NCBI GenBank assembly: GCA_022979955.1
Contig: GCA_022979955.1_3642.1
DNA length: 64,000 bases
Direction: 5' to 3' (one strand)
From: a phage
Position 1 is the stretch's first letter, and every line of letters begins with the position of its first letter. The translations under genes and the position numbers were made by a program. The notes under the pieces are model-generated. The model made no database searches. It had not been told where the DNA came from and saw only the letters and a list, made by a program, of their open reading frames with translations. Positions 36,323 through 55,260 of the stretch are shown piece by piece.

Positions 36323-36350
36323 TTGACAAACTAACTTAGATCGATATACT
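36323..36350 (+). promoter_or_regulatory. sigma70-like promoter
   Basis: TTGACA-16-TATACT followed by leader hairpin GGGAAAACTTCCC. Confidence 0.55.
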
Positions 36351-36401
36351 TAAACACGTAAACGGGAAAACTTCCCAGAGCACACAAAAGGAGAAAACAC
36401 C

Positions 36402-37911: not shown

Positions 37912-38172
37912 ATGCGTAAATTAAAAAATTTTGATAAAGTTGATGTTATCCTGAATAATTTTTACTACTGCAACAACAAGGCTATTTGGTGGCGTGATAG
38001 TTCCACCGATAAAGTCAAGGCGCGCTTTCTCCAAGGGCACTGGCAAGGCCGCCCAGTGATTAAAATCATGGGGCAATTGGTAGCGTTTAAAAATTGCCGC
38101 CGTGTTGATGACGTTGAGGAGATTTTAAACATTTTGCGCCACAATAATTTAAAAAATAGTGTTGACAAGTAA
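37912..38172 (+). CDS. hypothetical protein
   Basis: 86-aa ORF with GGAAGGAG SD. Confidence 0.45.
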   Translation: MRKLKNFDKVDVILNNFYYCNNKAIWWRDSSTDKVKARFLQGHWQGRPVIKIMGQLVAFKNCRRVDDVEEILNILRHNNLKNSVDK

Positions 38173-38189
38173 ATCTCAATAAGTATACT
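38162..38189 (+). promoter_or_regulatory. sigma70-like promoter
   Basis: TTGACA-16-TATACT followed by leader hairpin GGCGGGAA-AACT-TCCCGCC. Confidence 0.55.
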
Positions 38190-38246
38190 TAAACACACAG
38201 GCGGGAAAACTTCCCGCCACTAACAAAGAAAATAGGAGAAAATATC

Positions 38247-51990: not shown

Positions 51991-52322
51991 TACCGCACCT
52001 CCTCAATAACTTCCACATCTGAACCCACCACAAATGCAAAAGGACAGGTTTCATGAAAGACATCCGGATCGCCGCCAAGCTTGCTAACAATTTCTCCACC
52101 ACTAATAAACACAAGCTCACCGATATTCATCAGATTGCTGAAATAGTATCCATAATGATTAAAGAATGCAGCAGGGTCAGGTAGACTAGTAGCCTCAAGT
52201 TCTACATCGGTTGAGATTACTTTCTTATCATAACCTCTCGCCTTCTGAGATGCAAGATCTGCAGAATCTTCAGGCGACCGGAGATGCACAGGAATTGTTT
52301 CACCAATAAATCGTACTTTCAT
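51990..52322 (-). CDS. small acidic protein, paralog family A
   Basis: ATG at 52322 (MKVRFIG...); ends ...DVEVIEEVR; the track start at 52349 is a TTG without SD. Confidence 0.4.
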   Translation of the reverse strand: MKVRFIGETIPVHLRSPEDSADLASQKARGYDKKVISTDVELEATSLPDPAAFFNHYGYYFSNLMNIGELVFISGGEIVSKLGGDPDVFHETCPFAFVVGSDVEVIEEVR

Positions 52323-52326
52323 ATTC

Positions 52327-52590
52327 TTACCCAACAACCATAGCTTCAAAAGGAGTCATGAACGAATAAACGGCATCATCATCTGCTTCAGGAAATGCTC
52401 CCAAAGACTTCATATCTGAGCCCTTGACAAATACAAGGTTTTGATCAAAAGCTTCTTGAGGGTCAATCCGATACATATCTCGTAGGATATCGCTTACCTC
52501 CTCATCAAGAGGTGAGTATGCTGTGCACGTTTTTCCGATCAAGCTTTGAGAATCAGGGTATCCACCTGAAGTTTTAAAATAAACAATCAT
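52327..52590 (-). CDS. hypothetical protein
   Basis: 87-aa ORF. Confidence 0.4.
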   Translation of the reverse strand: MIVYFKTSGGYPDSQSLIGKTCTAYSPLDEEVSDILRDMYRIDPQEAFDQNLVFVKGSDMKSLGAFPEADDDAVYSFMTPFEAMVVG

Positions 52591-52684
52591 ATAGTATCAC
52601 CTCTGGCAAGAGATGGGGATTCCTTTCCCACAAATAATTACAAACTTTTCTTTTTATTGAGGGAGTATGCTAATCAAAGCAGGA

Positions 52685-52954
52685 TTACTCTTCTACAATC
52701 TCATACACATCAGGAGTTACAATCAACTCTTCTCCGTTACCTGGTGCAACAAACACCACCAAGCCTTCAGGTGTGTGCTTTTTAGCCATCTCGATGACAT
52801 CTTCTCGCAGAGCTGGCTCCATCAGATCAAAGCCTTCACCCAGTGCATCACGAACTACCTTCATGTAGTCCACTGGTTGTGCTTCAACGATCATGCCTTC
52901 AACCAGTCCGCAGTTTTTGTCTGCCAGCTCAGTTTTGAATAATTTAATTTTCAT
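52685..52954 (-). CDS. small acidic protein, paralog family A
   Basis: MKIKLF... ending ...YEIVEE. Confidence 0.45.
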   Translation of the reverse strand: MKIKLFKTELADKNCGLVEGMIVEAQPVDYMKVVRDALGEGFDLMEPALREDVIEMAKKHTPEGLVVFVAPGNGEELIVTPDVYEIVEE

Positions 52955-52980
52955 TTAGAGGTCTCCTCGATTATTTGATA

Positions 52981-53082
52981 TTAATAGCCGTAACCTAACA
53001 CATTAACTACAACTGCGATTGCAAACATAATTTCAAAGCATGCAATCTCTACATTTGGGACTAATTTCTTAATCATACCCAT
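52981..53082 (-). CDS. small hydrophobic peptide (33 aa)
   Basis: ATG after GAGGTG on minus strand; hydrophobic core. Confidence 0.3.
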   Translation of the reverse strand: MGMIKKLVPNVEIACFEIMFAIAVVVNVLGYGY

Positions 53083-53091
53083 TGTAGCACC

Positions 53092-53409
53092 TCAATCCCA
53101 AAAGTCAATCTTTACTTTACCTTTTCCCTTACCTTTCTTTCCACCGCATTTAGCCAACTGGCGTGCTGCAACATCCACCATACGGTCAGTTGCCTCGTAA
53201 GCATCGCTACCTTTAGCTTTGGCGATAACTTCTTTCCCAGAATTGTCAAAAATAAAAGCCATAACTTCCTGGTGATCATTTTCAACTTTTACACTCACAC
53301 GTGCATAGTTGGCAGAGGGGTGCAAGCGCTCCAGCTTGGACATTTTGTGGGAAATGAAAGACACCATACCTTCAGTGATCTCTACGTTGCCAGTGATTTC
53401 AATCTGCAT
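53092..53409 (-). CDS. hpf: ribosome hibernation promoting factor (HPF/RaiA family)
   Basis: MQIEITGNVEITEGM...KLER...VKVE...AKGSDAYEATDRMVDVAARQLAK closely follows bacterial HPF/YfiA sequence pattern as recalled; Lys/Gly-rich tail. Confidence 0.8.
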   Translation of the reverse strand: MQIEITGNVEITEGMVSFISHKMSKLERLHPSANYARVSVKVENDHQEVMAFIFDNSGKEVIAKAKGSDAYEATDRMVDVAARQLAKCGGKKGKGKGKVKIDFWD

Positions 53410-53456
53410 AACGTGCTCCTTTTAAAGAAGAGGGAACCAAACCCTCTTTGAAAATA

Positions 53457-53485
53457 ATGATACTAAAGATCAAATGTTGTGTCAA
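53457..53485 (-). promoter_or_regulatory. sigma70-like promoter for hpf
   Basis: TTGACA-17-TATCAT on minus strand, then leader hairpin AAGAGGG-TTTGGTT-CCCTCTT and AAGGAG. Confidence 0.55.
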
Positions 53486-53491
53486 CAGTTT

Positions 53492-53782
53492 TTACAGCTT
53501 GTCGTCGATAGTTTTTAAAATATCTACTGCAAGATCTGCCATTTTACGAACATACTCTGCAAACTCAACAGGATCCTTGATCAATGAGTTCACAGGGTCA
53601 TACCCTAAAGCGTTTAAAATGGCTACAGCATCCACAACCTTCTCATCATTTGCGAAGATCTCACCGTCAAACTTGTAGGTCCATTTTGAGTCAATCTTGG
53701 CATGGCAGGATTGGTCCATGCTTATTACACCATCTTTTTTAAACGATTCGGTGTTATCAGTGTCCAAAACTAAATCCATCAT
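53492..53782 (-). CDS. hypothetical protein
   Basis: 96-aa ORF. Confidence 0.4.
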   Translation of the reverse strand: MMDLVLDTDNTESFKKDGVISMDQSCHAKIDSKWTYKFDGEIFANDEKVVDAVAILNALGYDPVNSLIKDPVEFAEYVRKMADLAVDILKTIDDKL

Positions 53783-53799
53783 GTAAGTACCCCACTATT

Positions 53800-54198
53800 T
53801 CAGCTTATTTTTTCTTCAACAACCCCGTAGCTCGGGGCAGAGTCAAGAGCTTTCTGGTTTAAAAGTGGTGTAGCAGAATCTGCAAACGGTGTCCAAGTTT
53901 TTGTTCTGGCATTCCAGTAATGCTTCACTCTGGAATCCGGATGCACTATAACAAAAACTTTTTCACTTGTCAACACATTAATTTCTTCTACACCCTTGCT
54001 GATAATTTCTCCGTCATAGCCCCCAGTCTGGTATCCTTCGTACCAGGTTCTTGCATAGGCATAGCCAGCCTGCCAGCATGCAGCCTCCTCCGAGGTGGAG
54101 ACTACGTAGAAGTCTTTCTCAAATTCCGGAATACGCCCTTGCTTTACGCTCCAAGCTCCGCGAATTTTCATTGTAACTTTGAACAGTTTATTTTTCAC
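53800..54198 (-). CDS. hypothetical protein, paralog family B
   Basis: Shares KVFVIVHPDS...YW...TWTP with 51595..51990. Confidence 0.45.
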   Translation of the reverse strand: MKNKLFKVTMKIRGAWSVKQGRIPEFEKDFYVVSTSEEAACWQAGYAYARTWYEGYQTGGYDGEIISKGVEEINVLTSEKVFVIVHPDSRVKHYWNARTKTWTPFADSATPLLNQKALDSAPSYGVVEEKIS

Positions 54199-54210
54199 AA
54201 CGGTTACCCA

Positions 54211-54465
54211 TCACAGCTCTACAATATCTGCATCTGACCCTGCCCCAAAGGCATAATAGGACTCTTCCCCGAAATAATATTCAGGTGCACCAGCGGTGAT
54301 CAGGTCTGCTCCTAAGATAAACACCACGTTGTGGCCTACATAACTGTGATGTTGCCGCACAGGATCATCCCACGGCAACCCTTCGAAGTATACCGCAGGA
54401 ACGACCTTTCCATTCAGGAAGGATTGTCCCAAGTAGACGTTAGAATCAAGAATTTTAACCTTCAT
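54211..54465 (-). CDS. small acidic protein, paralog family A
   Basis: MKVKILDSNVYLGQ...GADLITAGA...; tandem with 54455. Confidence 0.45.
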   Translation of the reverse strand: MKVKILDSNVYLGQSFLNGKVVPAVYFEGLPWDDPVRQHHSYVGHNVVFILGADLITAGAPEYYFGEESYYAFGAGSDADIVEL

Positions 54466-54682
54466 GATCGTCCTCCACTACCTCTACATCCTCACCTAGG
54501 GCAAAGTTGTAGGTCCACTGACTGTCAAAGCATTCCTGAGATGCACCAGCGGCAATAAGATCTGCTCCTTTTATTTTTAAAAGGTCATGGTAATCTTCGT
54601 TAGGGACAGCAGTAAACACTTTTCCTACTAAAGGATCCTGACCAATATAGAAGCTTGAATCTAAAACTTTAACTTTCATCAA
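54455..54682 (-). CDS. small acidic protein, paralog family A
   Basis: MMKVKVLDSSFYIGQ...GADLIAAGA...EVVEDD. Confidence 0.45.
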   Translation of the reverse strand: MMKVKVLDSSFYIGQDPLVGKVFTAVPNEDYHDLLKIKGADLIAAGASQECFDSQWTYNFALGEDVEVVEDDHEG

Positions 54683-54963
54683 CGGTCTCCATCAGGTGGT
54701 TGTGGGACGTAAACACTGTTACGAATATCGTCCGCAGTATAGTAATAAGTGTCTCCAACCCTATCTCTGGCTGCAATGTACTCTGCTATACCAATAAGTG
54801 CCATTGATTTGGTGGCGTATCTTCCCCATTCGTTAGCTCCCCAGCAAAATCTCTGCCAAAACGGTATGAAACCGAATAGGTACACCTTCTGTTTCACTAT
54901 CCAATAAGTTCCTTTACAGATCACTTTAAACTCTGCAGCACTGTTACTGACACCATTGTTCAT
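54679..54963 (-). CDS. hypothetical protein
   Basis: 94-aa ORF. Confidence 0.4.
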   Translation of the reverse strand: MNNGVSNSAAEFKVICKGTYWIVKQKVYLFGFIPFWQRFCWGANEWGRYATKSMALIGIAEYIAARDRVGDTYYYTADDIRNSVYVPQPPDGDR

Positions 54964-54975
54964 TATCTTCTCCTT

Positions 54976-55260
54976 TTATTTTTCTGGGTTTGGCAGATAT
55001 TGCACATTGGCAGGAGGAACACCGGATAGCTCCCAAACAACCATAGTGCTGTACCCTGGCACACTTCTAACATTTAAAAGAGTAGGAGCACCAACACATT
55101 TAAACTTCCTTTTCCCAAATCCGTTCTCCATCATAACCCAGTATCCGGTATCCTGATCACCTGGAATTTGTGTTCCATCATCGTCCACCCAGCGGACGGT
55201 CCATTTTGATACAGCAACGGCTCGGTATTTAAACTTTTTAAACCACTCAAACAGTTTCAT
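54976..55260 (-). CDS. hypothetical protein
   Basis: ATG at 55260 lies 8 nt after GAGG; longer ORF start overlaps upstream gene. Confidence 0.4.
   Translation of the reverse strand: MKLFEWFKKFKYRAVAVSKWTVRWVDDDGTQIPGDQDTGYWVMMENGFGKRKFKCVGAPTLLNVRSVPGYSTMVVWELSGVPPANVQYLPNPEK

Follow-up and report, generated by a model that had tools for sequence, protein, structure and literature searches.

An rV5-like Vequintavirus carries a gene whose 105-aa product is, with near certainty, a functional homolog of the hibernation promoting factor (HPF) family. Sequence comparisons place this protein in an old, isolated phage lineage, to which cellular HPFs are at most 45% identical, and indicate strong purifying selection on the gene. 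The surface that contacts the ribosome in host HPFs has probably been remodeled and weakened in the phage protein, with the scaffold and part of the rRNA interface kept. The gene and its promoter were already annotated in the rV5 record, and the phage HPF was published in 2019 and 2020. What our analysis adds is the strong selection, the old and isolated lineage, the altered contact residues, the enrichment of the promoter class, and the unremarkable nature of the leader hairpin.

The window, by which we mean the whole stretch of 64,000 nucleotides of phage DNA that was analyzed, contains the following features at this locus.

53457..53485, minus strand: sigma70-type promoter TTGACA-17-TATCAT (rV5 P144), found by consensus scan with 11/12 matches
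53428..53448, minus strand: 7-bp stem-loop AAGAGGG-TTTGGTT-CCCTCTT at the very 5' end of the predicted leader, -11.3 kcal/mol
53416..53421, minus strand: Shine-Dalgarno sequence AAGGAG, 6 nt upstream of the hpf ATG, read from the sequence
53092..53409, minus strand: hpf-like gene (rV5 ORF144 ortholog), an ORF with an ATG start encoding 105 aa
53092..53142, minus strand: segment encoding the tail, C88-D105 (CGGKKGKGKGKVKIDFWD and the stop codon), where the protein varies most
52981..53082, minus strand: ORF145, encoding a 33-aa hydrophobic peptide, immediately downstream of hpf and annotated in rV5

The stretch from 52000 to 55000 matched 121 phage records at 90-99% identity, which identifies the window as a Vequintavirus, an rV5-like E. 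coli myovirus. This confirms the phage origin of hpf that had been proposed in an earlier, sequence-only reading of the window, and the protein segments quoted there (MQIEITGNVEITEGM..., KLER, VKVE, and AKGSDAYEATDRMVDVAARQLAK, with the tail CGGKKGKGKGKVKIDFWD) match the translation exactly. Its sequence is shared in full (100% identity) with the phage FV3 protein, whereas the rV5 protein is 98% identical and departs from it in just the last two residues, both in the tail (WD here, GE in rV5). An S30AE/HPF-YfiA domain occupies residues 1-89 and is followed by a disordered Lys/Gly tail at residues 90-105. By tblastn, 119 phage records contain the gene at a coverage of at least 84%. The orthologs in rV5 (gp144) and FV3 (ABI79209, AEZ65272) are the same gene, lying between homologs of ORF143 and ORF145 and behind the same annotated P144. 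The neighborhood consists of a run of small same-strand ORFs, with Pfam matches in none of the neighbors. Naming varies across Vequintavirus records: ORF144 is called "sigma 54 modulation factor" in the rV5 record (DQ832317), and other records use RaiA, hpf, or ribosome hibernation factor. In many phage records the gene is labeled merely as a hypothetical protein.

The sequence-only reading had assigned the protein to the HPF/RaiA family and named a profile search as the way to check this, and that assignment is borne out, with scores above the curated cut-offs of both general family models. PF02482 (Ribosomal_S30AE) matched residues 3-88 over profile positions 1-83 of 88, scoring 48.3 bits (gathering score, 23.7; E = 1.8e-12), and TIGR00741 (yfiA, HPF/YfiA family; NCBIfam) gave 45.9 bits against a cut-off of 40.9. 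The narrower equivalog models scored below their thresholds, at 55.8 bits against 125 for enterobacterial short HPF (NF007780/PRK10470) and 17.6 bits against 158 for RaiA/YfiA (NF007654/PRK10324). Long HPFs are defined by an N-terminal S30AE domain, a linker, and a C-terminal dimerization domain of ~60 residues; the phage protein, at 105 aa, has a single Pfam domain and predicted disorder at residues 90-105, and so lacks this architecture.

Structure prediction points in the same direction. The AF2 model (pLDDT 83, pTM 0.74) has a predicted β-α-β-β-β-α fold (E2-7, H13-29, E33-42, E47-55, E60-67, H70-89) with a pLDDT of ~90 over these elements. In Foldseek comparisons, this predicted structure aligned at 1.2 Å with E. 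coli HPF (6h4n_x) and V. cholerae HPF (4hei_A), with target-normalized TM-scores of 0.86-0.92, and the best 35 matches against the PDB were all HPF, YfiA, or pY. A Foldseek match to T7 Gp1.2 (E = 8.6e-4, TM 0.45) was judged to be a coincidence of small alpha/beta folds. The top sequence match among solved structures in the PDB is also E. coli HPF (E = 5.5e-12, residues 1-89). Because the profile scores, the predicted fold, and the structural neighbors agree, we consider homology to HPF/YfiA secure.

Two E. coli proteins offer the closest points of reference. Short HPF (YhbH; PDB 2rql, 4v8h, 6h4n) shares the predicted fold and ~40% identity over residues 1-89, but it ends in a helical basic C terminus (KHKDKLKQH), whereas the phage protein has a disordered Lys/Gly tail of 16 residues. 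YfiA/RaiA (protein Y; PDB 4v8i, 1n3g) shares the fold and the predicted binding site at 21% identity. Like the phage protein, it has a C-terminal extension past the length of HPF, which in YfiA is flexible and directed toward the RMF site. The two tails are comparable in length and unrelated in sequence: that of YfiA ends in acidic residues (VEEVEEE), whereas that of the phage is rich in Lys and Gly.

We compared the phage protein with 80 species-level gammaproteobacterial short HPFs at the ribosome-contact residues reported for Gram-negative HPF/YfiA (bioRxiv 10.1101/2025.10.07.680626), using E. coli HPF numbering. At six positions, the residue that predominates in these host-class proteins is replaced in both phage lineages, namely, Vequintavirus and the related sister lineage described below.

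R17: R in 78/80 host-class HPFs; V in the window phage; V in the sister lineage
T53: T in 69/80 host-class HPFs; F in the window phage; R in the sister lineage
H55: H in 77/80 host-class HPFs; F in the window phage; F in the sister lineage
K80: K in 80/80 host-class HPFs; V in the window phage; T in the sister lineage
H88: H in 78/80 host-class HPFs; C in the window phage; Y in the sister lineage
K89: K in 80/80 host-class HPFs; G in the window phage; S in the sister lineage

Other contacts persist. K23, K26, D69, Y71, D75, D79, R83 (the m4C1402 contact), and K87 are kept in both phage lineages, and Vequintavirus additionally keeps E60 and K91, with a hydrophobic residue at position 62. Relative to E. 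coli HPF, the phage protein thus shares K23, K26, E60, D69, Y71, D75, D79, R83, and K87 and carries R17V, T53F, H55F, K80V, H88C, and K89G. The contact set that we used to define a short HPF comprises the basic track of helix alpha2 (K80/R83/K87/K89/K91), the m2G966 platform (T53/62), and the uS9 contact (H55/E60). Within this set, R83, K87, K91, E60, and hydrophobic 62 are kept and K80, K89, T53, and H55 are replaced; in the window phage, Phe takes the place of both T53, on the m2G966 platform, and H55, which contacts uS9. K80 is one of four basic contacts common to HPF and YfiA (bioRxiv 10.1101/2025.10.07.680626), although it is not universal among more distant family members. A general loss of positive charge was rejected as an explanation for non-binding: the core, at a net charge of -2, is less negative than the host mean (-3.6), and a further +4 comes from the tail.

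The tail is the part of the protein that changes most. Residues 90-105 have a pLDDT of <50 and are predicted to be disordered in the AF2 model, and the net charge of +4 is spread over 17 residues, compared with +2 over 7 in host HPFs. Its end occurs as KIDFWD, KIDFGE, GKIDFE, and, in the frameshifted tail of the APCEc02 allele, CGRKKGKGERQSKD; in the sister lineage it reads KYSKSKGIDKRTAKWDY.

Upstream of this variable end, the gene is tightly constrained. Among Vequintavirus alleles, dN/dS over codons 1-88 is 0-0.05 at a dS of 0.3-0.75. We excluded the ev146 allele from this calculation, since its one-codon insertion (GNNVEIT) makes an ungapped alignment invalid. A phmmer search of 1.84 billion representative proteins identified one sister phage lineage at 65% identity, and beyond this lineage it returned no credible match above 45% identity or 47 bits. 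A match of 53 bits to a repetitive 1160-aa protein (P0006) was judged spurious. With the closest credible cellular HPF in this search at ≤45% identity and ≤47 bits, the recent capture from a host suggested by Mizuno et al. is unsupported. In the sister lineage, hpf is 64% identical and its syntenic neighbors are 40% and 58% identical, and both the synteny and the promoter are conserved. A scan of a viral collection with an alignment of the phage lineage recovered two further Vequintavirus-type contigs and nothing else. The other HPF homologs reported in phages (Cronobacter phage GAP32, Xanthomonas jumbo phage XaC1, and metagenomic viral contigs) are likewise S30AE-domain proteins of large phages, and interference with the dimerization of host ribosomes has been proposed for them. 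These appear to be independent acquisitions, as they gave no tblastn match to the window protein at an E value of 1e-3 or better, and the GAP32 protein has been grouped with Firmicutes sequences (Mizuno et al. 2019, PMC6375957).

The promoter P144 occupies part of the 82-bp gap that separates the upstream stop codon (53492) from the hpf ATG, and its transcription start is predicted near 53450. It is annotated in the rV5 record (DQ832317) as "Sigma70-type promoter; P144" directly upstream of ORF144, and the rV5 genome paper predicted 33 promoters of the sigma70 type (PMC3606486). In the window, 20 sites match the sigma70 consensus at 11/12 positions or better, against 1.8 expected (maximum of 5 in 100 simulations). 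All 20 sites of this promoter class have a perfect TTGACA and lie on the strand of the local transcription unit, and the extended promoter motif AAACTGTTGACA occurs 30 times, against 8.6 expected. Six Vequintaviruses and the sister lineage share an invariant -35 hexamer and flank, even though the HPF of the latter is only 64% identical; there, the -10 element is AATTAT with a TGn extension. In phage Gotham, the same promoter was predicted by PhagePromoter. P144 thus has the features of a sigma70-dependent phage promoter, namely, near-consensus hexamers, a 17-bp spacer (16-18 being allowed), placement on the coding strand, and conservation. The predicted promoter is credible because its -35 region is invariant across lineages and its class is enriched, and the dedicated TTGACA-17-TATCAT promoter noted in the sequence-only reading therefore holds up as an 11/12 match that is conserved, belongs to an enriched class, and has been predicted independently of that reading. 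E. coli hpf is located in the rpoN operon, whereas the phage gene has its own predicted sigma70 promoter. From the promoter type and the gene neighborhood, we infer early expression of hpf.

The leader hairpin fares differently. It exists as a sequence, as had been claimed, but as a functional element it lacks statistical or comparative support. Its stability is no better than that of shuffled sequence (z = -0.56), and among random 45-mers drawn from the window it ranks in roughly the top 8-17%. In the ev146 allele, a G-to-A change in the stem is left uncompensated, and the leader of the sister lineage lacks the hairpin entirely. An Rfam search of the hpf leader region matched no family, the raiA-motif RNA included, and inspection of the other 19 promoters of the class indicated that a hairpin is not a general feature. 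We therefore rejected the stem-loop as a regulatory element.

The Shine-Dalgarno sequence that follows the hairpin is AAGGAA in most other Vequintaviruses. Downstream, ORF145 matches phrog_15151 (E = 5e-26) and is absent from the sister lineage. Its own GAGG Shine-Dalgarno sequence overlaps the hpf stop codon, and it is therefore probable that hpf and ORF145 are cotranscribed and translationally coupled.

The function of the protein has been addressed experimentally once. In the 2019 study of Mizuno et al., the proteins of rV5 and FV3 were classed, with related ones, as viral HPFs, and the rV5 protein was produced from pBAD24 in E. coli NM522; cells were harvested at an OD600 of 1, and ribosomes were pelleted through a sucrose cushion containing 500 mM NH4Cl (PMC6375957). 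The protein was present in the crude extract and undetected by mass spectrometry in the washed 70S and 100S fractions, and its expression in these cells caused no discernible change in 100S formation, a difference from E. coli HPF; the authors speculated that viral HPFs compete with host HPF, preventing dimers (PMC6375957). Mathieu et al. (2020) subsequently reported hpf as an auxiliary gene in five rV5-like gut phages, "as already described" (PMC6969025). Our literature search found no follow-up on phage HPF and no Vequintavirus expression data beyond these two studies, and the Paride paper does not mention Vequintavirinae.

These data bear directly on the proposal of the sequence-only reading that the phage silences ribosomes and so manipulates host translation, which is not borne out: the rV5 ortholog was undetected in high-salt-washed 70S and 100S ribosomes, and 100S formation was unchanged (PMC6375957). 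The proposal is further weakened by replacements at contacts that vary little or not at all among host HPFs. Ribosome silencing is thus unproven, because the contacts have diverged and the published rV5 test was negative. Of the two observations by which that reading could be judged, the match to the S30Ae/HPF family was found, and the change in ribosome state was not, in an experiment whose 500 mM NH4Cl wash and late-exponential harvest limit the weight of a negative result.

How, then, might the phage protein act? We slightly favor a model in which it still works on the decoding channel of the ribosome. Host RNA polymerase would transcribe hpf from the conserved near-consensus sigma70 promoter, probably together with ORF145, and the protein would then bind vacant host 30S or 70S particles reversibly, docking in their tRNA/mRNA channel through the retained core of the interface (K23, K26, E60, I62, D75, the m4C1402 contact R83, and K87). 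Because the host-HPF contacts R17, T53, H55, K80, and K89 are replaced (R17V, T53F, H55F, K80V, and K89G), binding would be expected to be weaker and more salt labile than that of the host factor. Such binding would plausibly fit a protein that is found in crude extract yet is absent after a 500 mM NH4Cl wash. Host hibernation factors are likewise stripped by high-salt washes. Standing against this model are the sole published test, which was negative both for association with 70S and 100S particles and for a change in 100S (PMC6375957), the loss of both K80 and K89, each present in 80/80 host-class HPFs, and the exchange of T53 and H55 for Phe.

The outcome of such docking could resemble that of YfiA/RaiA. 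The basic tail may exit from the end of helix alpha2, as the tail of YfiA does, toward the rRNA-lined RMF/anti-Shine-Dalgarno pocket. Idle ribosomes would then be parked and protected as 70S monomers, the 100S dimers driven by RMF and HPF would be disfavored, and the ribosomes would be reclaimable for phage mRNAs. This reversible occupancy of idle ribosomes without dimers is favored by analogy, because the extended C-terminal tail of YfiA runs toward the RMF site, with RMF invisible in YfiA-bound maps (bioRxiv 10.1101/2025.10.07.680626). The phage tail, however, is unrelated in sequence to that of YfiA and variable at its end, which includes a frameshifted allele, and the RaiA model scores just 17.6 bits, so we offer this specific outcome only tentatively.

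Other readings of the gene deserve consideration. A classical hibernation or host shut-off factor would bind tightly in the manner of HPF, silence translation, and form 100S particles with host RMF. The core of the phage protein is indeed nearer to short HPF than to RaiA (55.8 bits for PRK10470 vs 17.6 for PRK10324), with E. coli HPF as its top PDB match, and the gene lies behind a strong host-type promoter among small genes that resemble early genes. Yet the PRK10470 cut-off of 125 is missed widely, the protein has lost the invariant K80 and K89 as well as H55, T53, and R17, which are nearly invariant, and the rV5 ortholog was missing from 70S and 100S fractions, with 100S formation unaffected (PMC6375957). 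The comparison with YfiA also argues against partnership with RMF, since the extended tail of YfiA is reported to run toward the RMF site and RMF is unseen in YfiA-bound maps (bioRxiv 10.1101/2025.10.07.680626). Moreover, a lytic phage would need active ribosomes, and a channel blocker could not obviously distinguish host from phage messages. Among the functional models, tight HPF-like binding with 100S formation agrees least with what has been published, and we regard it as very unlikely. At the other extreme, hpf could be a decaying passenger, a captured host gene without a current role in the phage. The negative functional test, the variable tail with its frameshift in APCEc02, and the many records that annotate only a hypothetical protein would all suit such a gene. 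However, a dN/dS of 0-0.05 over codons 1-88 at substantial synonymous divergence, the presence of hpf in 119 phage records at ≥84% coverage, the conservation of synteny and promoter in the sister lineage, and an origin that is not a recent capture would not; because of these selection and conservation data, the passenger reading is effectively refuted.

A further possibility is that the fold has been put to a new use, with the scaffold and basic tail binding another RNA or protein, such as a host defense or stress factor or a phage or host mRNA. Host-HPF contacts have been lost while purifying selection remains strong, the published test for ribosome association was negative, and the lineage has been isolated for long, with no cellular HPF closer than ≤45% identity and ≤47 bits among the 1.84 billion representatives. 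In addition, a surface made up of V16, HP30-31, DHQEV45-49, F54, KAKG64-67, and DAYEATD69-75 is conserved between phage lineages that are 64% identical. Against a new partner, R83, K87, K23, K26, E60, D75, and hydrophobic 62 are all retained, the predicted fold matches ribosome-bound HPF at 1.2 Å, and the gene context suggests no other partner, the neighbors being without Pfam matches. Two of the apparent arguments for it also lose force, as K80 varies in distant family members anyway and the negative experiment used a 500 mM NH4Cl wash. We consider a new function of this kind unlikely but a serious rival, more probable than either the classical factor or the passenger gene.

Returning to action on the decoding channel, the weakened HPF scaffold (K80V, K89G, H55F, and T53F) might serve as an anti-hibernation or ribosome-reservation device, with the Lys/Gly tail in the RMF/anti-Shine-Dalgarno pocket, or might instead have been retargeted to a nonribosomal partner; we put this forward as a speculative proposal, and a rather doubtful one.

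Because the gene has long been annotated in the rV5 record and was put to the test a single time, in 2019, our findings open no new question. They do, however, provide a concrete route to testing function, since this strongly constrained gene encodes a contact surface that is conserved yet altered. Phage genes whose products engage the ribosome are uncommon, and little is understood about them. If a virus could tune ribosome hibernation, this would be important for infecting slow-growing or dormant bacteria; gut bacteria are normally in such a state, which is also a recognized hurdle for phage therapy. If the phage protein does act as a reservation device, host HPF, YfiA, and RMF would be displaced or excluded, and the ribosomes of slow-growing gut E. 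coli would stay as reclaimable 70S monomers. Such a device could help explain why rV5-like phages are reported to do well in the gut and to infect a broad range of hosts.

Near-consensus sigma70 promoters, which we defined as at least 11 of 12 matches to the -35 and -10 consensus, are enriched in the window, with 20 found across its whole length vs 1.8 expected, and all 20 carry a perfect TTGACA. Those between 9 and 44.6 kb lie on the plus strand and those between 47 and 62.6 kb on the minus strand, with one more at 3.2 kb. This strand distribution marks a switch in the direction of transcription near 45-47 kb. Individual promoters and promoter-like sites, together with the gene directly downstream of hpf, are listed here.

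36323-36395 and 38162-38234, plus strand: two promoters of the 20-member class, each followed by a hairpin
53973..53945, minus strand: 11/12 promoter match, TTGACA-17-TATAGT with TG, within the ORF142 coding region (53800..54198)
53108..53081, minus strand: promoter-like site with an extended -10 (TGn), TTGACT-16-TACAAT, overlapping the ORF145 ATG and, at the end of hpf, codons I101-D102-F103
52981..53082, minus strand: ORF145, a 33-aa hydrophobic peptide (MGMIKKLVPNVEIACFEIMFAIAVVVNVLGYGY; phrog_15151)

The hairpins that follow the two plus-strand promoters (-5.5 and -14.6 kcal/mol, respectively) have the core GGGAAAACTTCCC in common and may represent a repeated 5' leader element. The match in ORF142 is also followed by a hairpin (-12.6 kcal/mol); this site may be a promoter internal to the gene, or the match may have arisen by chance.

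The promoter-like site at the end of hpf has a PhagePromoter prediction in phage Gotham as well. The site may place an added constraint, at the DNA level, on the "IDF" that is conserved where the HPF tail ends. Immediately downstream, the GAGG Shine-Dalgarno sequence of ORF145 overlaps the hpf stop codon, and ORF145 is for this reason probably translationally coupled to hpf.

Among alleles of the phage HPF, the type found in ev146, MaxBurger, and slur12 (rV5_ev146 allele L006, 601-921) carries one additional Asn (GNNVEIT) that brings the loop back to the length seen in the E. coli protein. The APCEc02 allele (L008, 601-906) is frameshifted, encoding 101 aa with the tail CGRKKGKGERQSKD.

Several database records mislabel the hpf ortholog as "ATP-dependent protease La Type I," and the APCEc02 record assigns "sigma 54 modulation factor" to a neighboring gene, the ORF146 homolog (records with such slips: OR062525/28/30, MT884008/09/11, and NC_041869). 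The best 3-kb match of window positions 52000-55000 is Campylobacter phage D1/D# (98.9%). Eighteen unannotated "Campylobacter phage" records (MG0656xx) are near-identical to E. coli Vequintaviruses; their host label appears questionable, and contamination or mislabeling may explain it.

An hpf homolog was also present in a sister phage lineage, represented by contigs from Logan and ENA that span 15.7-126 kb (L002-L005). Its 103-aa HPF (P0004, encoded on contigs reaching about 137 kb) is 64% identical to that of the window and has the same synteny; ORF145 is absent from this lineage (L002). The phage collection holds no representative of it, with only about one-third of 8 kb aligning to Vequintaviruses, at about 75% identity. 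The sister lineage is probably a relative from Vequintavirinae that has yet to be sequenced.
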